Virus record (IMG/VR): IMGVR_UViG_2740892233_000023
DNA: 11,769 nucleotides
Direction: 5' to 3' (one strand)
Source: a virus
Lineage: Duplodnaviria > Heunggongvirae > Uroviricota > Caudoviricetes
The position numbers and the translations under genes were made by a program. The notes beneath the pieces were generated by a model. That model searched no databases. It was given only the letters and a program-made list of their open reading frames with translations, and was not told the DNA's origin. Shown here one piece after another: positions 1,659 through 9,642 of the stretch (its first letter is position 1; the number at the start of each line of letters is the position of its first letter).

Positions 1659-4600
1659 TTAAGAATCAGCCTGACTCGGGATCAGTTTTTGCCAGATAAC
1701 TGAAACGTATTTTGCCTGGTAACGGGCGTCATCAAGTGCATTATGGCGCTCACCTTCGAATGGAATAGCCGTTCTGGCATCGAAGTCTATGGCTTTCCCC
1801 AGCTCAACGATTGTGCGTACATCGCGATCGTTGTAGTAACGCCACGGGCAGGGGATCCCCTGCCGTTCGTATGAACGGCGCAAAATCGTGTTGTCGAAGT
1901 TGGCTCCATTTCCCCAGACCTGAACAAAAAATTCACCGGAGTTTTCGTCGATAAATTCCCGCAATTGTAACAGTGCATCATCTAACGGGATTTCATCGGT
2001 CATAATGGCAGATTGCGCTTCGCGTGATTGCTTAAGCCACCATTTAATGGTGTCCCGATCAATGACCCCGCCAGCAGTTTCCAGATCGATAGTCTTACTA
2101 AATTCCGGCCCCATATCTCCGGTTTGCGGATCGAAAAATATTGCACCTATTGAGATGATCGGGGCATCAGGATTTTTTCCCATGGTTTCAAGGTCGATCA
2201 TTAGATGGTCACACGTCCTGCNNNNNNNNNNTCCGCCAGCAGTTTCCAGATCGATAGTCTTACTAAATTCCGGTCCCATATCTCCGGTTTGCGGATCGAA
2301 AAATATTGCACCTATTGAGATAATCGGGGCATCAGGATTTTTTCCCATGGTTTCAAGGTCGATCATTAGATGGTCACACGTCCTGCTGGTGGATGTGATT
2401 TCTTGATGACCGTTCACCTTAATTGAGTGATCTGCCGTCTCGCCAGTTTCATTATCGCTATCGTGATGCTGATTGCCGTCAGTGTTCTCCTTGTGTGGAT
2501 GTTCAGCGCCTTCCATTTCCTCCGGATCATCTTCCTGAACTTCAACCTGATACTCTTCATCGAATGTTTCCTGGTATGTTGCGTCGCCCATCACCGCGCC
2601 ACAATCAGGGCAGTTGCCGCNNNNNNNNNNAATGCGATGACCGTTCACCGTAATTAAGGGATCTGCCGTCTCGCCAGTTTCACTATCGCTGGCGTGGTCC
2701 TGAGCGCTGCCAGCATTCTCCTTGTGTGGATGTTCAGCGCCTTCCATTTTCTCCGAATCGTCTTCCTGAACTTCAACCAGGTTCTTGTCATCGAATGTTT
2801 CCTGGTATGTTGCGTCGCCCATCACCGCGCCACAATCAGGGCAGTTGCCGCCGCCGGTCTGACCGCAGGCGGTGCAGACTTTTTCCGGTTCCTGTTGCGC
2901 TACTGGCTCAGGTTGTTTCGTTTCTGGCTCGTTTTGTTGCGTATTTGGGCTGTTTTGTTCCGCTTTCTGGTCGTTCTGTTCCGATTCTTGCTGGTTCTGG
3001 TTTACAGAATCGCGGGTTTCAATCCCCTTTACCCATTTCGGATCATTCGGGTCGCTAATCCCTGCAACAAATTCTCCGCGAGAGGCAGCAAGCAACTTAT
3101 CGGCGTCAGGCTGGCTGATATTGGCTGCCTGCATAATTTTGTTTACTTCGTCAGCGGTAANNNNNNNNNNACTCCTCTGACCGCAGGCGGTGCAGATCTT
3201 TTCCGGTTCCTGTTGCACTACTGGTTCAGGTTGTTTCGTTTCTGGCTCGTTTTGTTGCGTATTTGGGCTGTTCTGTTCCGCTTTCTGGTCGTTCTGTTCC
3301 GTTTCTGGCTGATTCTGGTACACAGAATCGCGGGTCTGGATCCCCTTAATCCATTTCGGATCATTCGGGTCGCTAATCCCTTCAACAAATTCTCCGCGAG
3401 AGGCAGCCAGTAATTTGTCTGCATCGACAGGATTTTGGGGCGGAATGTTTTTCCGGGCTTCATGGAGTTCTGCCCGCAGTTTCTGATATTTCGCATCAAC
3501 AGAATTTACCTGTGACTGAGCATCCAGCGGCTGCGTGTCCTGATGATGTTCAGTTGCATCCGGTTCCACTGTTTCAGCCGTTGCCTGTTCATCTGCCATT
3601 GCGCAAGATGGTTGCGGTTTTTCTTCATCATTTTCTTCTTCTTCTGTTTCCTGCTTAGCAGCCAGTTCGCGGTTAACTTCTTCCAGGATATCTTTTTCCG
3701 GTGTATGTCGTGCAGCAGTGAGAGTTTCCTTGCTGGGGTTCTCGTGATCAGTCTCCGTTAAGTAGGCGTTGATATACCCCTGAAGGCGTCCCGGGTAGTG
3801 ATAAAACTCAGGGTGAGCGCTCCGGATAAGTGCAAAAATAGCGGCGCGGGAATAGTCCAGAATACCCGGGGTTGCGCGAAGTGCTGCGGACCATTCTTTG
3901 AACGGACTTTCTCTTTTCAGGACGATTTCTTTTGCGCGACGATAAACGCTGCCCGGAATTTCATAAATATTAAAATCCATCGGAAGTGTGGCTGCTGCAA
4001 TCTCCACATCCAGCGTATCGAAGGTGTGTACTAAATTCGGATTGCGATCGGTTTTGTTCCCGCCACCGGCATTTGCACCGGAAGCCGTACGGGTGATACG
4101 CGAAACACGATTTCCTTTCATCCACTCTTTTGTCAGCAGACCCCGATCAGTGTAGTCAGCGTCCAGGTATGCCTCGAAAAAAGCAGTTATCAGTCCCAGG
4201 TCTGAATTACCGGGATTAGGGAAAACTTTGTCAGTGTCGCGTGCCAGTTTATGAAGGTCGCGAATCTCCAGCGGGTCGAGCAGCTTTGTGTTGTGGGAAA
4301 TGGCCAGGGCAGTAACAGCCGGCAGTTCTTCCGCCCGTGCTATATGTAATGCCTGAAGTTCTTCCCGTGCAACGTGCGTTACTGGTTTTTCGCTGCCGTG
4401 TTGCGCAAGCCAGCGAATGGGCAGCTCCTGACCAGAAACCGGCAGGAGCATATTCTCCTCAATCTCCGTCATGTCTTCGCCGTTGACGTTGGTATTGTCA
4501 GTACTGGCTGGTTTCTCCTGCACGGAGGGAGAGGGCGCGATAAATACCATTGTAATGCCATCTTCCCCGCCTTTTTCGTATCGGTTGCAGAATTCGGTAT

Positions 4601-4835
4601 CAAACACGCCTTCAGGTGGAAGGTCATTCACAACGGGTAAATGGACGCGAACGGGTTTTTTAAAGTCGTCTTCATCATAATCGTTGTCATCCATTGCGGT
4701 AATGCAGCGGGAGATGGCAACAGATAATTTTTTTGCTGTAGTCCAGTAAAAACCACCTTTAATTCCCAGACGTTTTCTGACTTTGTCATTTTTTGCTTCG
4801 CAATATAGCGCAAATTCTTCTTTATCAGTGCTCAT
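1659..4835 (-). CDS. Prophage exonuclease: RecE (exonuclease VIII) N-terminal-like region fused to a C-terminal DEDDh (DnaQ-like) 3'-5' exonuclease domain; ORF crosses three N10 runs
   Basis: Long minus-strand ORF with GAGG SD 9 nt upstream of ATG at 4835. The N-terminal ~600 aa resemble the non-catalytic N-terminal part of RecE-family proteins (from memory). The C-terminal ~180 aa carry DEDDh motifs: Exo I MIDLETMG, Exo [13 protein letters not shown], Exo [15 protein letters not shown]. Protein length is unreliable because the N10 runs at 2222-2231, 2621-2630 and 3161-3170 are flanked by duplicated sequence; the true protein is probably about 830 aa. Confidence 0.8.
2222..2231. other. N10 gap flanked by ~154-bp near-identical copies (2068-2221 vs 2233-2386, 2 mismatches)
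   Basis: Direct comparison of flanking sequence; the copy offset is 165 bp (a multiple of 3). Confidence 0.95.
2621..2630. other. N10 gap flanked by ~228-bp diverged copies (about 2393-2620 vs 2631-2860, roughly 88 percent identity)
   Basis: Direct comparison of flanking sequence; the copy offset is 231 bp (a multiple of 3). Confidence 0.95.
3161..3170. other. N10 gap flanked by ~270-300-bp diverged copies (about 2861-3160 vs 3171-3440, roughly 92 percent identity; ends diverge)
   Basis: Direct comparison of flanking sequence; the copy offset is 318 bp (a multiple of 3). Confidence 0.95.
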
Positions 4836-4927
4836 TGATAAACCTCATTACAGATTTAAGGGTGAACAAATCCCTGCCATTGCTGGCATTTTTAATCCGT
4901 TGGTATGGTGTTAATATGGCTGGAGGG

Positions 4928-5116
4928 TTATCCAGCCGGTGTTTCGTTATTCAGGTACAGCGATACTTTTTTTACCGGGAGGCATTCACCAGAAATTTTT
5001 TGCTCGTCTCTTGCCTGGAGGCAGGATTCTTTACTGGCATAAATTCCGGTAATCACATTCTGTGATTCACCCGTTATAAGAAAAACCGTCATCATCAGTG
5101 CAAATGCTGAAGTCAT
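4928..5116 (-). CDS. YdfD-like small membrane protein (62 aa)
   Basis: Minus-strand ORF whose ATG overlaps the dicB-like stop (ATGA). N-terminal hydrophobic segment (AFALMMTVFLITG) and two Cys. Position immediately downstream of dicB-like matches the Qin-type ydfD position. Family call from memory and synteny. Confidence 0.6.
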   Translation of the reverse strand: MTSAFALMMTVFLITGESQNVITGIYASKESCLQARDEQKISGECLPVKKVSLYLNNETPAG

Positions 5117-5301
5117 TGACGTTCTCCGAAAATACCAAGTTCAAGAAGAGCAATTCGGGAAAGTATGGAATTATCATTGAGCAGATAAGGCTCATATTTC
5201 CTCATATTAATGGCATCTTCAGTAAACTCCCGGTTACTGAGCAGAACACCAATATCAAAACAACCTTCAGACGTATTAACGTTTGGTAATAACGTTTCCA
5301 T
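5113..5301 (-). CDS. dicB: DicB-like cell-division inhibitor (62 aa)
   Basis: Minus-strand ORF starting at ATG 5301 with GAGGA SD 7 nt upstream. Product METLLPNVNTSEGCFDIGVLLSNREFTEDAINMRK… matches the remembered DicB family (LLPNVNTSEGCF…FTEDAIN) in length and sequence. It lies directly downstream of a DicF-like sRNA, as in the Qin dicB operon. The ORF-track GTG-start extension to 5406 is not needed. Confidence 0.75.
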   Translation of the reverse strand: METLLPNVNTSEGCFDIGVLLSNREFTEDAINMRKYEPYLLNDNSILSRIALLELGIFGERQ

Positions 5302-5470
5302 TATCGCGTCCTCAACAATGAATTTTGTGATGCGGTGCCTGGTGCCTCCAGGTGACGTTAACCAGTTAACAATTAACGCCGGATACAGAGAATCCACCCA
5401 TAACACTGTTTTTGGTTTTAACTGTTCCGCGTGCGCTCAGCCGCATTCACCACATCACAAAATTCACTTT

Positions 5471-5528
5471 AAAAAGGGCGGCAGAGCAGTCACGGAGTAA
5501 AACTGATACCGCCAAACGTCACCAGAAA
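5471..5528 (-). ncRNA. dicF: DicF-like sRNA (copy at end of contig before N-run)
   Basis: Minus-strand sequence TTTCTGGTGACGTTTGGCGGTATCAGTTTTACTCCGTGACTGCTCTGCCGCCCTTTTT matches the remembered 53-nt DicF sRNA followed by a U-run. Located upstream of dicB-like in the same orientation. Confidence 0.7.
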
Positions 5529-5554: not shown

Positions 5555-5564
5555 NNNNNNNNNN
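5555..5564. other. N10 gap; the ~116 bp before it (5439-5554) are repeated after it (5566-5681) with 3 differences
   Basis: Direct comparison of flanking sequence; both copies end at the same point (…cgttgcagcgg) before an N-run. Confidence 0.95.
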
Positions 5565-5597: not shown

Positions 5598-5655
5598 AAA
5601 AAGGGCGGCAGAGCAGCCAAGGAGTAAAACTGATACCGCCAAACGTCACCAGAAA
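5598..5655 (-). ncRNA. dicF: DicF-like sRNA, variant copy (2 substitutions, CCGUGACUG to CCUUGGCUG)
   Basis: Second copy of the DicF-like sequence on the short segment between two N-runs. It may be an allele or paralogue brought in by contig concatenation rather than a second gene in the same genome. Confidence 0.55.
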
Positions 5656-5681: not shown

Positions 5682-5691
5682 NNNNNNNNNN
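5682..5691. other. N10 gap (junction between DicF-containing segment and twin-hairpin/cassette contig)
   Basis: Seen in sequence; no overlap detected across this junction. Confidence 0.95.
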
Positions 5692-6513: not shown

Positions 6514-6523
6514 NNNNNNNNNN
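6514..6523. other. N10 gap flanked by repeated ~85-bp segment (6429-6513 vs 6777-6862)
   Basis: Direct comparison of flanking sequence. Confidence 0.95.
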
Positions 6524-7082: not shown

Positions 7083-7439
7083 TTACTCGAGAGGAAATTG
7101 GTTATGAATACAATCAAGTTTTCTTGCCCAGAATGTGGTGGCTAAGTCTTTGACACATCCTTTAAGCCGCAGGGCTCTGACAGTTTCGCGGGAGCCATCT
7201 GCAAAAATTGTGGTCACCTTGTAACTGAAGATGAGTCCTCGCAGTTCGATGACGAAATCGTTGACAATATCTTCGGTGCACTCACCAGAGACTTTCTGAA
7301 GTAAAGGCGCATACCGCTTAGTTACCGCTCTGATAATTCTTACCTGTCCGGCAATGGCGCTGATATCAATATAAAGCGCCATCGCTGTTTCTTTGCTGAT
7401 CCCTGGATGCCTTCCATTCTGATGTTTGACTTCGCCCAC
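7083..7439 (-). CDS. Hypothetical 118-aa ORF (GTG start); possibly only a mirror-frame shadow of the plus-strand zinc-ribbon ORF
   Basis: Uninterrupted minus-strand ORF with GAGGA SD before the GTG. It is in exact codon register with the plus-strand ORF 7104-7304, so one of the two is likely non-coding. It is on the same strand as the operon, which favours it; the repeated motif argues for the other strand. Confidence 0.3.
   Translation of the reverse strand: MGEVKHQNGRHPGISKETAMALYIDISAIAGQVRIIRAVTKRYAPLLQKVSGECTEDIVNDFVIELRGLIFSYKVTTIFADGSRETVRALRLKGCVKDLATTFWARKLDCIHNQFPLE
7104..7304 (+). pseudogene. Zinc-ribbon-like small protein (CPECGG … CKNCGH) interrupted by an in-frame TAA after codon 13
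   Basis: ATG at 7104 with AGAGGAAA SD 9 nt upstream. Translation is MNTIKFSCPECGG-stop-VFDTSFKPQGSDSFAGAICKNCGHLVTEDESSQFDDEIVDNIFGALTRDFLK-stop. Two CxxCG knuckles sit about 20 aa apart. The stop could be AAA to TAA (a single substitution). Confidence 0.35.
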
Positions 7440-7619
7440 TGAGAAATCCTCTGTTTCCCCTTAACGCCGGGGTAGCGGAACAAAAAACCTGCTGCATAGT
7501 TAAACGTAATCCCCGCCGTCATGTTCATACGCCTCAGGCTGGCTACTTAACCCCTGACCACTGCCGGGTAACTCGAAGTATTGCCCTGCGTTCTGTGGGG
7601 CGGGGTGGGTTTATGGATA

Positions 7620-7675
7620 CAATTTACAAATTAAAATTTAACTGGTCAACATGTTTATTATTAAATTTGTAATTG
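7620..7675. promoter_or_regulatory. Imperfect inverted repeat CAATTTACAAATT … AATTTGTAATTG with central AACATGTT palindrome, upstream of higB-like
   Basis: Seen in sequence; AT-rich with a candidate -10 (TATTAT at 7656-7661). Shares the 12-mer AAATTTGTAATT with the immunity operator region at 8904-8915. Confidence 0.45.
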
Positions 7676-7717
7676 CGGGCTGTTGCATCAGTCCCAAAAT
7701 GGGACTACTATACAGTT

Positions 7718-8020
7718 ATGAAGATTATCTCAGTTAAAACACTCAGGGATTTTTGGGCGGAGAATCCTGATGCAGAACAACCGCTAAGGGCATGGGTGGA
7801 TGAGGCGGCAAAAGCTGACTGGAAAAGCCCAGCAGACATTAAGGCACAATACCGAACGGCCAGTATATTGAAAAACCGGCGCGTGGTATTCAACATAAAA
7901 GGTAATCATTACCGTTTAATTGTTGCAATTGCGTATCAGCGAGGATGGGTATTTGTTAAATTCATCGGAAACCACAAGGAATACGATGCTATTGATGCTG
8001 ATACCATCGAACTGGAGTAA
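7718..8020 (+). CDS. higB: HigB-family toxin (RelE/ParE-superfamily mRNA interferase), ~100 aa
   Basis: ORF from ATG 7718 with motif …VFNIKGNHYRLIVAIAYQRGWVFVKFIGNHKEYD… resembling HigB toxins. It lies immediately upstream of an HTH antitoxin-like gene (toxin-first order, typical of higBA). No clear SD; the TTG at 7673 is an alternative start. Confidence 0.75.
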   Translation: MKIISVKTLRDFWAENPDAEQPLRAWVDEAAKADWKSPADIKAQYRTASILKNRRVVFNIKGNHYRLIVAIAYQRGWVFVKFIGNHKEYDAIDADTIELE

Positions 8021-8022
8021 GC

Positions 8023-8382
8023 ATGAACATCAAACCTATTCGTACAGAGCAAGATTATGAAGCCGCGTTGCGTGCTGTTGAACCCATGTTCGACAATGAG
8101 CCCGAAATTGACACGCCTGAGGGGGATTTTTTTGAGGTGATGTGTTTGCTAATAGAGGAATATGAAAAAAAACATTATCCCATTGAGCCACCATCCCCAA
8201 TTGAAGCTATAAGATTTCGCATGGAACAGCAGGGGCTGACTGTGAAAGATTTGGAACCCGCAATTGGGAAAAAAAATCGGGTTTATGAGGTGTTGAATGG
8301 TACCAGAAGCCTTACGTTACCAATGATTCGCCGTCTTCATAATCAATTTGGTATCCCCCTGGAAAGCCTGGTTGGATTATAA
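8023..8382 (+). CDS. higA: HigA-family antitoxin (HTH, XRE-type), 119 aa
   Basis: ATG 2 nt after the higB-like stop, with GGAG SD. C-terminal HTH …GLTVKDLEPAIGKKNRVYEVLNGTRSLTLPMIRRLHNQFGI… resembles HigA antitoxins. Confidence 0.75.
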   Translation: MNIKPIRTEQDYEAALRAVEPMFDNEPEIDTPEGDFFEVMCLLIEEYEKKHYPIEPPSPIEAIRFRMEQQGLTVKDLEPAIGKKNRVYEVLNGTRSLTLPMIRRLHNQFGIPLESLVGL

Positions 8383-8398
8383 AATCTGCTAGTCATTT

Positions 8399-8447
8399 GC
8401 CTGATGCTCGTTCCAGAAAAGGAATGCATCAGGCAGTTTTGTTTTTC
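8399..8447 (+). terminator. Intrinsic terminator for the higBA-like transcript (overlaps the 3' end of the repressor gene)
   Basis: Stem GCCTGATGC / GCATCAGGC with inner TTCC/GGAA stem and AGAAAA loop, followed by AGTTTTGTTTTT on the plus strand. Confidence 0.55.
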
Positions 8448-8821
8448 TGCCGCAGTAACTCTTCAAGTTTCCGTTTATAGAAATCGCGTTTTTGCTCCAT
8501 ATCACGAATGATCTGCTCTGCGTCGCTTTGAGGTAACTCATCTAAAAGCGATATGATTTTTCGTTGTTGTTCTGTAAGTTGCGGTTGGTTGTCATTACTG
8601 GATACAGCCATTTTATCGCCGAGAGTTTCTTCTTCCATAAAGAACCAATGGACGGGATGTTGTGAGAGCTCTGCTAATTTTTCCAGTTTATCCATTCTTG
8701 GCATCACGCCTTTCAACCAACCTTGCACGGATTGGGGTTTTACACCAAGACGTCTTCCCAGCTCTGACTGGTTTATATTCAATTCCTGCAACACCTGCTG
8801 AAGGCGTTTTACAAAGATCAT
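8429..8821 (-). CDS. Prophage repressor, DicA/RacR-like (N-terminal HTH, no S24 peptidase domain)
   Basis: Minus-strand ORF; likely start is ATG at 8819-8821 with GAGGGG SD. HTH …NQSELGRRLGVKPQSVQGWLKG… and a C-terminal region resembling the DicA C-terminus (…LPQSDAEQIIRDMEQKRDFYKRKLEELL…). Divergent from a Cro-like gene. Confidence 0.8.
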   Translation of the reverse strand: MIFVKRLQQVLQELNINQSELGRRLGVKPQSVQGWLKGVMPRMDKLEKLAELSQHPVHWFFMEEETLGDKMAVSSNDNQPQLTEQQRKIISLLDELPQSDAEQIIRDMEQKRDFYKRKLEELLRQKNKTA

Positions 8822-8874
8822 CACCACCCCTCGTAAACTAGTTCCGCGATCCTACAGAAAAAATTGATAAGTGG

Positions 8875-8914
8875 CATTACAAATAGAAGTTGAAATTTAA
8901 ATTTAAATTTGTAA
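8875..8914. promoter_or_regulatory. Operator-like perfect 9-bp inverted repeat ATTACAAAT … ATTTGTAAT (22-bp spacer) in the divergent repressor/cro intergenic region
   Basis: Seen in sequence; it flanks a candidate promoter (TTGAAA at 8890-8895 with an AT-rich -10) and includes TTTAAATTTAAATTT direct repeats. Confidence 0.5.
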
Positions 8915-8947
8915 TTATCGGTGTCATCGTAAAGTTCGGAGGGAAAC

Positions 8948-9208
8948 ATGCAAAAAAGTACTCAAGTGAAAATCCTGTCAATAATGAGCCAATCAGAATT
9001 AGGGCGTCGTCTTGGTAAAACACCGCAAACCATAAGTGGGTGGTTTAAAAAACGAGTGCCAGCGGAGGAGGTTATACCAGCATGTGAGGCGCTTGACTGG
9101 GGAGTAACTCCGCATGAATTGCGCCCTGATAAATACCCTAATCCAACCGATGGTTTACCTGTTGAGTATCAGGCTAACGCACAAGCAGCGGCGGGAGTTG
9201 ATTCATGA
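8948..9208 (+). CDS. Cro-like HTH regulator (YdaS family)
   Basis: 86-aa ORF with GGAGGG SD 5 nt upstream. HTH …SQSELGRRLGKTPQTISGWFKK… closely parallels the repressor HTH. Divergent from the repressor; YdaT-like gene follows with ATGA overlap. Confidence 0.8.
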   Translation: MQKSTQVKILSIMSQSELGRRLGKTPQTISGWFKKRVPAEEVIPACEALDWGVTPHELRPDKYPNPTDGLPVEYQANAQAAAGVDS

Positions 9209-9642
9209 AAATCAAGCATGAGCACATCCGCATGGCGATGAATGCGTGGCTGCTTTATCCGAGGGTAGGGCGCAAAAAAATCGCTGATGATATAGCGACA
9301 GCATATTTTGAGCTTGAAATGACTTATCCACCAATGCATGACACCTCTACGACAGAGGGTATTGGATTGAACATACAAAATATTTTTCGCTGGCTTGAAA
9401 AGGATACGCCTGATGCTGTTGAAAAAATTCAGGCACTAATTCCAGCTATCCTGACTGTTCTTCCGCGTGAACTGCGTTATCACCTCAGTATTTTTGACAC
9501 TGTTGAGCGCCGTGCATTACTGGCGGCCCAGGAAGCGTTGAGCACGGCAATTGATGCGCATGATGATGCAGTCCAGGCAGTTTACCGGAAAGCGTATTTC
9601 AGCGACGGCGGGTCATCCGGCGAGTCTGTTGTGGTGCATTGA
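9205..9642 (+). CDS. YdaT-family protein (CII-like regulator of Rac-type prophages)
   Basis: 145-aa ORF starting MKIKHEHI…, translationally coupled to the ydaS-like gene. Family call from memory and synteny. Confidence 0.75.
   Translation: MKIKHEHIRMAMNAWLLYPRVGRKKIADDIATAYFELEMTYPPMHDTSTTEGIGLNIQNIFRWLEKDTPDAVEKIQALIPAILTVLPRELRYHLSIFDTVERRALLAAQEALSTAIDAHDDAVQAVYRKAYFSDGGSSGESVVVH

Follow-up and report, generated by a model that had tools for sequence, protein, structure and literature searches.

The founding toxin-antitoxin (TA) pair of family PF09907 is HigB/HigA of Escherichia coli K-12 (YgjN/YgjM; PDB 5IFG and 6KML, and 5YCL from Shigella), in which HigB is a translation-dependent mRNA interferase, HigA autoregulates and activation is Lon-dependent (PMC2814082). 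HigBAC, described from E. coli NT1F31 and present with the same architecture in BP-4795, H-19B and Stx1a phages, is a HigB-based toxin-antitoxin-chaperone (TAC) system of lambdoid prophages that lies in the slot downstream of cI and defends against lambda (bioRxiv 10.1101/2024.02.24.581848). In PD-lambda-2 of ECOR42, toxicity resides in the B protein, in which a HigA-like part is fused to a C-terminal peptidase of ImmA/IrrE type (PF06114); a HigB-like protein rescues, and defence requires a third gene, PF14350 (Vassallo et al. 2022, PMC9519451). An addictive TA of another kind, paaA2-parE2, sits in the same immunity slot of prophage CP-933P; the CP-933P switch controls how it is expressed, and stabilisation of the immunity region has been proposed for it (PMC8630535).

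The locus described here lies in a window of 11,769 nucleotides, the whole stretch of viral DNA that was analysed, and comprises the genes higB and higA (Table 1). It is very probably an intact, self-contained type II HigBA module of the K-12 YgjN/YgjM, PF09907 kind, carried as a moron by a lambdoid prophage of Qin/Rac/CP-933P-like type, within its immunity region, in STEC-type E. coli. The pair is ordinary, being of a well-known kind and already annotated in public genomes.

Table 1. Positions of the higBA module and of neighbouring features in the window.
Feature	Positions	Strand	Description
PL-like early-left promoter	7621-7649	-	-35 TTGACC 7649-7644, -10 TAAATT 7626-7621; putative function
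OL-like operator repeats of prophage repressor	7624-7674		TTACAAATTAAAATTTAA 7624-7641, inverted TTAAATTTGTAATT 7661-7674; putative binding
higBA own promoter/operator	7683-7711	+	from cross-context alignment; predicted transcription start and HigA binding
higBA -35	7683-7688	+	TTGCAT
Palindrome	7691-7705		GTCCCAAAATGGGAC; within the 17-nt spacer of the higBA promoter
higBA -10	7706-7711	+	TACTAT
higB	7718-8020	+	100 aa plus stop; HigB family, PF09907, RelE/ParE superfamily
Shine-Dalgarno of higA	8014-8017	+	GGAG, 5 nt before ATG, within the 3' end of higB; read from sequence
higA	8023-8382	+	119 aa plus stop; HTH_3, homology to K-12 HigA
higBA intrinsic terminator (predicted)	8397-8446	+	hairpin 8397-8436, then TTTTGTTTTT 8437-8446
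Prophage repressor	8429-8821/8827	-	DicA/PaaR2-like HTH, 130-132 aa, convergent with higBA
OR-like operator region with PR-like promoter	8876-8918		repeats I3/I4
YdaS-like gene	8948-9208		
YdaT/CII-like gene	9205-9642		

HigB, HigA and their described relatives

HigB matches the Pfam model HigB_toxin (PF09907) with 113.7 bits (curated cut-off 27 bits; E 4.8e-33) at model positions 1-74 of 74, which bears out the HigB-like toxin named in an earlier, sequence-only reading of this DNA. Residues 1-93 of 100 match the solved K-12 and Shigella HigB chains 5IFG_A and 5YCL_B (E 3e-7), at an identity to K-12 HigB of only ~28%, and the PADLOC profile PD-Lambda-2_A is matched at positions 1-96 of 97 (E 1.1e-40). 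In RefSeq the protein is WP_000692026.1, 'type II toxin-antitoxin system HigB family toxin'. Neither HigB nor HigA is matched by NCBIfam, which tells nothing about the pair, given the matches in Pfam, PADLOC and PHROGs alike. The residues N59, G62, N63, R66, H86, E88, Y89 and D90 are invariant among HigB, its alleles, BP-4795 HigB and K-12 HigB, and copies from Salmonella and Kluyvera retain them except for E88Q in Kluyvera. They resemble the E/R/H/Y set of YoeB, and we take them to be a putative active site. A single-sequence AlphaFold2 model of HigB reaches a pLDDT of 43, too low to use, so that the fold is argued from sequence homology alone: the likeness to solved HigB implies a RelE/BECR fold.

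The HTH antitoxin of HigA type that had been proposed as the partner is likewise recovered, with an HTH_3 match at residues 63-115 (Pfam, E 4e-6) and a match of residues 6-112 to K-12 HigA (5IFG_B, E 3e-9), an alignment that spans the N-terminal part and the C-terminal HTH of this HigA. K-12 HigA is longer, at 138 aa. HigA covers the first 119 of the 402 positions of the PADLOC profile PD-Lambda-2_B (E 1.7e-42), and the Pfam search of HigA gives no match to the peptidase PF06114. More than 7,996 homologues of HigA were found; the best 120 are all of ~119 aa, and some homologues are named HigA by their sources. The stand-alone 119-aa HigA is, on these matches, a large and stable family across many contexts. 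The genes are separated by 2 nt in the toxin-first order previously described, and higB, unlike higA, has no Shine-Dalgarno sequence. Among E. coli alleles with 3-5% DNA divergence, dN/dS is 0-0.08 for both genes (0.02-0.06 for higA); the Salmonella and Kluyvera copies have both ORFs at the same length as here, and none of the examined copies has a shortened higB or higA. Purifying selection on the two genes is strong, and the low dN/dS together with the identity of length across genera shows that the ORF pair is not a chance one.

The toxin-first bicistronic order is shared with K-12 HigBA, which is chromosomal, whereas the present pair lies in a prophage immunity region and has a distinct putative operator. 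With HigBAC it shares the core of a PF09907 HigB and a HigA, each 43% identical to the BP-4795 protein, as well as the repressor-adjacent slot of rexAB type (bioRxiv 10.1101/2024.02.24.581848; BP-4795 layout). However, BP-4795 HigA (ORF21) has 218 aa with a C-terminal chaperone-addiction (ChAD) extension of ~98 aa that the HigA of this pair does not have, the alignment with ORF21 stopping at residue 117 of 119, and no gene for a SecB-like chaperone (HigC) was found, either in the window or among the genes that RefSeq annotates in the carriers; in BP-4795, ORF20 matches PD-T4-9_C. HigBAC is also co-directional and downstream of cI, whereas this pair is transcribed toward the repressor gene. Without HigC the published gpV-sensing mechanism of HigBAC cannot apply here, and membership in HigBAC was rejected because ChAD and HigC are both absent. 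A recent truncation of HigBAC was rejected as well, since no more than 43% identity is left and the 119-aa form makes up a large, stable family known from many contexts. Membership in PD-lambda-2, prompted by the strong PADLOC matches of HigB to its A protein and of HigA to the N-terminus of its B protein (PMC9519451), was rejected because there is neither a peptidase domain nor a third gene: no further plus-strand ORF follows higA, and the terminator and the convergent repressor come next. The unexpected reversal of roles in PD-lambda-2 implies that homology is no guarantee of the polarity of toxicity.

In CP-933P of E. coli O157:H7, paaR2-paaA2-parE2 likewise places a TA between PL/OL and a CI-analogue repressor, in a region of YdaS/YdaT type, and that repressor too is of DicA/PaaR2-like HTH type and lacks a peptidase domain. 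Its toxin is a ParE and its antitoxin has no DNA-binding domain, both unrelated to HigB and HigA; moreover, paaA2-parE2 is co-transcribed with and controlled by the repressor, whereas higBA is convergent, with an HTH antitoxin, a promoter and a terminator of its own. The exclusion morons rexAB and sieB of lambda occupy a like position, in or beside the immunity region, with no kinship in sequence or mechanism. Expression in the lysogen is plausibly common to them and higBA, though rexAB is co-transcribed with cI and higBA has the opposite orientation. A plain two-gene HigBA is thereby added to the repressor-adjacent lambdoid cargos, namely rexAB, paaA2-parE2, HigBAC and Stk.

Promoter, candidate operator and terminator of higBA

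Homology among five unrelated genomic contexts starts at the higBA promoter, so placed by cross-context alignment, and the cassette is predicted to carry this promoter as its own. The hexamers are weak (7/12 consensus match), under the threshold of a generic promoter/terminator scan, which missed the promoter; the same scan missed the terminator, whose loop exceeds 8 and which was detected by folding. The start codon of higB lies 6 nt past the -10, so the higB mRNA may be leaderless. The palindrome in the spacer is unique in the window, and its pattern GTCCC-N5-GGGAC is invariant in 6/6 aligned sequences with differing flanks, which makes it the likely HigA operator. A second, distal copy of this operator is present in two of the five contexts (L016 and L021), and in the window a phage operator sequence stands where those two carry the distal copy. 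The Salmonella and Kluyvera cassettes have neither the distal operator nor a phage operator nearby.

The hairpin downstream of higA has perfect arms of 10 bp (repeat I12) and folds as RNA at -23.5 kcal/mol (z -3.5), with 0/200 shuffles as stable; it covers the stop codon of the repressor (8429-8431) and its last codons. The minus-strand version folds at -22.8 kcal/mol without a U-tail. Because the U-run (8437-8446) follows the plus-strand version alone, the hairpin is predicted to terminate higBA rather than to act as a canonical bidirectional terminator. The sequence-only reading had higBA converging on the repressor with a shared terminator region: the convergence is upheld, and there is one strong hairpin at the repressor stop, but it is not predicted to be a canonical bidirectional terminator. 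In the other contexts of the cassette the hairpin is not part of it.

Immunity region and distribution of the cassette

The module lies on the plus strand, with the PL/OL-like region (7621-7674) on one side and the 3' end of the repressor gene on the other, whereas the repressor and the int-proximal, early-left genes are on the minus strand. Both the strand arrangement and the rexAB-like slot had been noted before and are upheld. The PL-like promoter (9/12 consensus match) is divergent from the higBA promoter and has a conserved position among other carriers. The 18-nt arm of the OL-like repeats is 94% complementary to 8897-8914 in the intergenic region between repressor and cro, and an exact AAATTTGTAA occurs at 7663 and 8905 only, so that operator-like repeats are common to 7624-7674 and 8876-8916. 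The OL-like repeats are kept in A34, C5 and RMDEC364. In the OR-like region, the PR-like promoter has a -35 TTGAAA and a -10 AATTAT with TG extension, and a PRM-like promoter is found on the minus strand. The repressor matches HTH_3 (E 6.6e-9) and the DicA subfamily (E 2.3e-13, but below cut-off), has distant CI-like matches in phages and shows no peptidase domain. The TA pair and the immunity region both have ~40-44% GC, against 47-50% in the flanks; the notion that the TA is compositionally foreign to the immunity region was rejected, its GC being the same.

Among complete E. coli genomes, higBA is present in 148 of 5,426, with the toxin already named by RefSeq. The higBA genes, the segment of repressor plus OR, and a 1-kb query spanning the two are each found in 148 genomes, and in these genomes higBA is always linked to one repressor/operator set (148/148), while the left and right prophage arms beside the immunity module vary among carriers. 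Within E. coli, the cassette moves together with a single immunity module, of which it is a constant component. In other Enterobacterales, the cassette of 100 and 119 aa also occurs at unrelated prophage, ICE and chromosomal sites: a tail-region moron slot in Salmonella, ibpAB-yidE in Kluyvera, a metabolic locus, and an ICE/IS3 region in Citrobacter. In Salmonella, the copies occupy cargo sites of prophages and have other TA genes as neighbours. When the phage collection was searched for DNA of near identity, the TA was not found and the only match was a PL-leader segment of ~100 bp (7508-7611); at this level of identity, deposited phage genomes thus lack the module. The phage protein search returned only paralogues of ~42% identity, of HigBAC type, and the literature search found no paper on this module or its RefSeq accession.

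Mechanism and possible roles

The most likely mechanism, by analogy with the family, is that of a canonical ribosome-dependent mRNase toxin restrained by an autoregulating HTH antitoxin. HigB would enter the ribosomal A site and cut translated mRNA, leading to translation arrest; HigA would bind and neutralise HigB and, through its HTH at the palindrome, repress the operon; and loss of the labile HigA, or its degradation by Lon, would free HigB (PMC2814082). The possibly leaderless higB start without a Shine-Dalgarno sequence, beside a higA start with GGAG, would keep the antitoxin in excess.

The role is tentatively taken to be one of addiction, by which the immunity cassette or the prophage would be stabilised, an effect shown for paaA2-parE2 in the same slot of CP-933P. 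That the main function is instead anti-phage, higBA serving as an abortive-infection or exclusion moron, is possible but rather doubtful. Infection by another phage would bring down the level of HigA, by shutting off the host or by way of a phage trigger, and the freed HigB would halt translation, leaving the cycle of the invader incomplete and the lysogen population protected. The variable repressor-adjacent slot, like that of lambda rexAB and of the anti-lambda HigBAC (bioRxiv 10.1101/2024.02.24.581848), speaks for such a function, as do the 43% identity of toxin and antitoxin core to BP-4795 HigB/HigA, the best PADLOC matches being PD-Lambda-2_A and the N-terminus of PD-Lambda-2_B, and the company of other TA genes around the Salmonella copies in prophage cargo sites. 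However, the parts by which these relatives sense phage or defend (ChAD and the SecB-like chaperone; the peptidase and the third gene) are absent, the same cassette is found in ordinary chromosomal loci too, and the literature search found no report of defence for a plain two-gene PF09907 HigBA. Stabilisation and abortive-infection defence are not mutually exclusive. It is very improbable that the pair has decayed or been domesticated and is now a remnant, with HigB inactive, or with toxicity reversed as in PD-lambda-2, and HigA acting only as a transcription factor. TA loci, both chromosomal and prophage-borne, do often decay, and the HigB-like protein of PD-lambda-2 acts as an antidote (PMC9519451), but every examined copy is full length, dN/dS of higB is 0-0.08, the residues invariant across K-12, BP-4795 and this HigB are retained, and the toxic part of PD-lambda-2 is the full-length HigA-like/peptidase fusion, whose peptidase domain is absent here.

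A wiring of higBA into the lysis-lysogeny switch, with repressor occupancy tuning the TA and read-through from the TA disturbing repressor expression, is unlikely. The geometry is suggestive: the higBA promoter is back-to-back with PL, the operator-like repeat at 7661-7674 sits 9 bp upstream of the higBA -35 and belongs to the set shared with 8876-8916, and phage operator sequence replaces the distal HigA operator of L016/L021. The transcript is convergent, with its terminator over the last codons of the repressor, higBA is linked to the immunity cassette without exception (148/148 genomes), and the control of paaA2-parE2 by the CP-933P switch offers a precedent (PMC8630535). Yet HigA has its own HTH and a conserved operator, so that a phage regulator would be unneeded, the Salmonella and Kluyvera copies have no distal operator and no phage operator near them, and the strong terminator favours insulation over interference. 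A hybrid-regulated higBA that reads the lysis-lysogeny state and enforces inheritance of one OL-repressor-OR set is similarly improbable. In its promoter, an operator of the prophage repressor would join the proximal HigA operator, at the place where other copies carry a second HigA operator, and the repressor gene would have the convergent transcript and the terminator of higBA built into its end; if true, this would explain the 148/148 linkage.

The pair opens no long-standing question, as its family and the underlying concept are both well established. If defensive or stabilising, higBA could affect prophage retention and superinfection among strains rich in Stx phages; its carriers include the clinically relevant STEC lineages O26, O103, O45 and O111.

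The higBA pair and its place in the immunity region

The genes at 7718-8382, which the sequence-only reading took for a toxin-first pair of HigB and an HTH-type HigA, are present as ORFs at exactly these coordinates, and both products match the named families. HigB covers the entire Pfam HigB_toxin model (PF09907) at 113.7 bits (E 4.8e-33), above the cut-off of 27 bits, and the HigB/RelE-family assignment of this 100-aa protein is thereby upheld. Residues 1-93 match the solved HigB of E. coli K-12 and Shigella (5IFG_A, 5YCL_B, 6KML_A; E 3e-7), and HigA residues 6-112 align with K-12 HigA (5IFG_B; E 3e-9), an alignment that includes both the N-terminal part and the Xre-type HTH (residues 63-115). 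The pair is thus very probably a canonical HigBA module. Identical genes in E. coli O26:H11 11368 already carry RefSeq annotation, the toxin gene as 'type II toxin-antitoxin system HigB family toxin' (WP_000692026.1) and the second gene as an HTH protein (WP_001022415.1), named HigA-family antitoxin in some newer records; higBA is an uncharacterised member of a large, well-studied family, annotated in public genomes.

Judged from sequence comparison, higB and higA are real and maintained. Alleles in other E. coli prophages show 3-5% DNA divergence but only 0-3 residue differences per protein, with Nei-Gojobori dN/dS of 0-0.08 for higB and 0.02-0.06 for higA. In the Salmonella and Kluyvera copies, synonymous sites are saturated, dN is 0.12-0.16 and ORF lengths are exactly equal. 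Residues N59, G62-N63, R66, H86, E88, Y89 and D90 are invariant among the window HigB, its paralogue in phage BP-4795 and K-12 HigB, and may serve in catalysis.

Features of the immunity region and adjoining arms
Feature	Position	Strand	Remark
Integrase, DUF4224, RecE-like exonuclease, DicF/DicB-region genes, YdfC	left of PL-like region	-	in that order
PL-like promoter and operator-like repeats	7621-7674
higB	7718-8020	+	100 aa; pair lies between operator-like repeats and repressor
higA	8023-8382	+	119 aa
DicA/PaaR2-like repressor	8429-8827	-	without peptidase domain
OR-like region	8876-8918
YdaS-family Cro analogue	8948-9208
YdaT/CII-like gene	9205-9642
Replication genes	beyond YdaT/CII-like gene

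The window is a STEC-type lambdoid prophage, whose segment 6530-11769 is 99.7-99.9% identical to prophages of O26, O103 and related genomes. A TTACAAAT.../...AAATTTGTAA motif flanks the higBA-repressor block on both sides: the 18-nt arm 7624-7641 shows 94% complementarity to 8897-8914, and exact copies of AAATTTGTAA are confined to 7663 and 8905. These repeats look as the OL and OR operators of a single repressor would and are candidate operators. Because they lie on both sides of the block, higBA sits inside the immunity region, at the position of rexAB in lambda, as the earlier assignment to an exclusion or defence moron slot had it. The orientation described there also holds: higBA is on the plus strand and the repressor and int-proximal genes on the minus strand, with higBA transcribed toward the repressor gene, not together with it.

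In the left arm, annotations conflict between a 118-aa ORF at 7083-7439 (-), which matches phrog_21318 (E 1e-66) and is the version annotated in phage Evi, and ~7104-7304 (+), in RefSeq an 'ECs_2282 family putative zinc-binding protein'. Six 10-N scaffold gaps (2222-2231, 2621-2630, 3161-3170, 5555-5564, 5682-5691, 6514-6523) leave the toxin-antitoxin region free. At four of the six, the 61-64 nt preceding the gap are repeated beyond it, and the RecE-like exonuclease ORF has 1,058 aa in the window versus 816 aa in O26 11368; since sequence recurs across gaps, the inflated ORF and repeated segments are probably assembly-join artefacts rather than biology. A Qin-like early-left operon is expected to hold one genuine DicF. 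Two DicF sRNA matches (5476-5527 and 5603-5654, minus strand; 76.7 and 71.5 bits against a gathering score of 48) lie 127 nt apart on either side of the 5555-5564 gap, the second copy being likely a scaffold-join duplication.

Promoter, translation start and terminator

In the alignment of upstream DNA across contexts, homology starts ~35 nt 5' of the start codon (window ~7683); at the other end it stops at the higA stop codon. The conserved upstream block contains a -35-like TTG-hexamer, a 17-nt spacer and a TAnnAT -10 (7706-7711), with an invariant GTCCC-N5-GGGAC palindrome in the spacer (7691-7705). This block carries the signature of a self-contained promoter, PhigBA, with a putative antitoxin operator to which HigA would bind; K-12 higBA has been shown experimentally to have its own promoter with an antitoxin operator (PMC2814082). 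In two contexts (L016, 3638-3707; L021, 3635-3704) a second palindrome copy lies just upstream, so that one stands on each side of the -35. The Salmonella and Kluyvera copies and that of the window (compared over 7658-7727) have the proximal one only; the phage operator-like repeat TTAAATTTGTAATT takes the distal place in the window.

The higB start codon lies 6 nt past the -10 and lacks a Shine-Dalgarno sequence, so its mRNA may be leaderless or near-leaderless; higA, after a gap of 2 nt, has a GGAG 5 nt 5' of its ATG. Such an arrangement would favour antitoxin excess.

Downstream, a hairpin spanning 8397-8436 folds at -23.5 kcal/mol, a stability that none of 200 shuffles reaches; it covers the stop codon and last codons of the repressor gene and is directly followed by TTTTGTTTTT on the plus strand. 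Its minus-strand counterpart (-22.8 kcal/mol) is without a U-tail. The proposed shared terminator region therefore stands as a real, stable hairpin at the repressor end, but it is a canonical terminator for higBA only. The higBA terminator probably keeps antisense transcription out of the repressor gene.

Linkage to the repressor and other contexts of the cassette

When three queries were searched against 5,426 complete E. coli genomes, the pair alone, the repressor and OR segment alone, and a spanning 1-kb query were each found in 148 genomes at 149 places. Left-arm neighbours (YdfA/B/C, Rha, DicB variants) and right-arm replication genes vary among the carriers. With linkage constant and arms varying, higBA in E. 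coli is therefore a constant part of a single immunity cassette in a mosaic prophage family. The only part common to >3,000 other genomes and Rac-like phages is a ~100-bp PL-leader segment (7508-7611); in the Rac-like phages the slot separating this segment from the repressor contains either nothing or a different small gene. The spanning query is partly matched in >3,000 E. coli genomes. The segment, 92-97% conserved in Rac-like phages, adjoins the PL-like promoter on its left, has no annotated gene and may supply the early-left transcript with a conserved 5' leader or a regulatory site.

The HigA search gave >7,996 homologues, and the best 120 are all ~119-126 aa with 74-99% identity, from Salmonella, Citrobacter, Kluyvera, Erwinia, Serratia, Providencia, Xenorhabdus, Pectobacterium and an Edwardsiella plasmid; several are called HigA by their source records. 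The cassette is both mobile and autonomous. The toxin-first pair of 100 and 119 aa occurs in Salmonella prophages between tape-measure and minor-tail genes, beside other cargo and toxin-antitoxin genes, on the Kluyvera chromosome, where ibpAB and a yidE-like transporter flank it, in a bacterial metabolic locus, and in Citrobacter adjoining a TraI relaxase and an IS3 transposase. The HigBA-carrying Salmonella prophages hold further toxin-antitoxin-like cargo (at 8511-9413 in L008 and 8467-8931 in L009-L011) on the opposite side of the tape-measure gene, either a PF05015 HigB-like toxin accompanied by HTH partners or a YafO toxin, which suggests that this tail region is a TA-rich cargo hotspot.

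Known relatives and possible role

By analogy with the K-12 pair (PMC2814082), HigB would act as a ribosome-dependent mRNA endonuclease and be neutralised by HigA; HigA would repress the operon at the GTCCC-N5-GGGAC candidate operator, and its loss or degradation would free the toxin.

In organisation, the nearest analogue is paaR2-paaA2-parE2 of CP-933P, likewise a toxin-antitoxin set between PL/OL and a CI-analogue repressor (PaaR2) in a YdaS/YdaT-type immunity region. That system is addictive and was proposed to limit immunity-region rearrangements (PMC8630535). Its toxin, however, is of another family, its pair is co-transcribed with the repressor whereas higBA is transcribed toward it, and its antitoxin lacks a DNA-binding domain while the window HigA has an HTH. 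Stabilisation of the immunity cassette or prophage by addiction is a serious candidate, if slightly short of probable: linkage to the repressor is complete, the same cassette is found at non-phage loci, no sensor component is present and CP-933P offers a precedent. Abortive-infection defence, for which the slot and the defensive relatives speak, is possible though doubtful. Coupling to the lysis-lysogeny switch is improbable; it would fit the back-to-back PL and PhigBA, the repeat resembling a repressor operator that lies 9 bp from the higBA -35, at the place of the second HigA operator in other copies, and the terminator built into the end of the repressor gene. That the pair is decayed or of reversed polarity is highly improbable, higB being under selection. 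The slot is already known as a host site for toxin-antitoxin and defence cargo, and the sequence-only observation and interpretation are essentially correct.

In PADLOC, HigB matches PD-lambda-2 component A over its full length (E 1e-40) and HigA matches component B (E 1.7e-42), the match being confined to positions 1-119 of a 402-position profile. PD-lambda-2 has three components (Vassallo et al. 2022, PMC9519451): the first is HigB-like; the second, in which a HigA-like HTH is joined to an ImmA/IrrE peptidase, is the toxic part; and the third, a PF14350 gene, is needed for defence. With neither peptidase nor third gene there, the window pair was rejected as PD-lambda-2.

A search of phage-genome proteins found a ~42%-identity paralogue that directly follows cI in H-19B, BP-4795 and many Stx1a phages. 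In these phages three genes follow cI (BP-4795, 4001-5342), labelled in the records just HigB toxin, transcriptional regulator and hypothetical protein: a HigB (95 aa in BP-4795), a 218-aa HigA with a ~98-aa C-terminal extension, and a gene matching PD-T4-9_C, the SecB-like chaperone of CmdTAC (E 3e-11). This set has the HigBAC toxin-antitoxin-chaperone architecture. The window pair, in contrast, has neither ChAD tail nor chaperone, so the HigBAC sensing mechanism cannot apply to it. The prophage of the window, as it occurs in O26:H11 11368 (L001), carries a second type II pair, a RelE/ParE-family toxin with a ParD antitoxin (17445-18007), ~8 kb to the right of higBA and outside the window.
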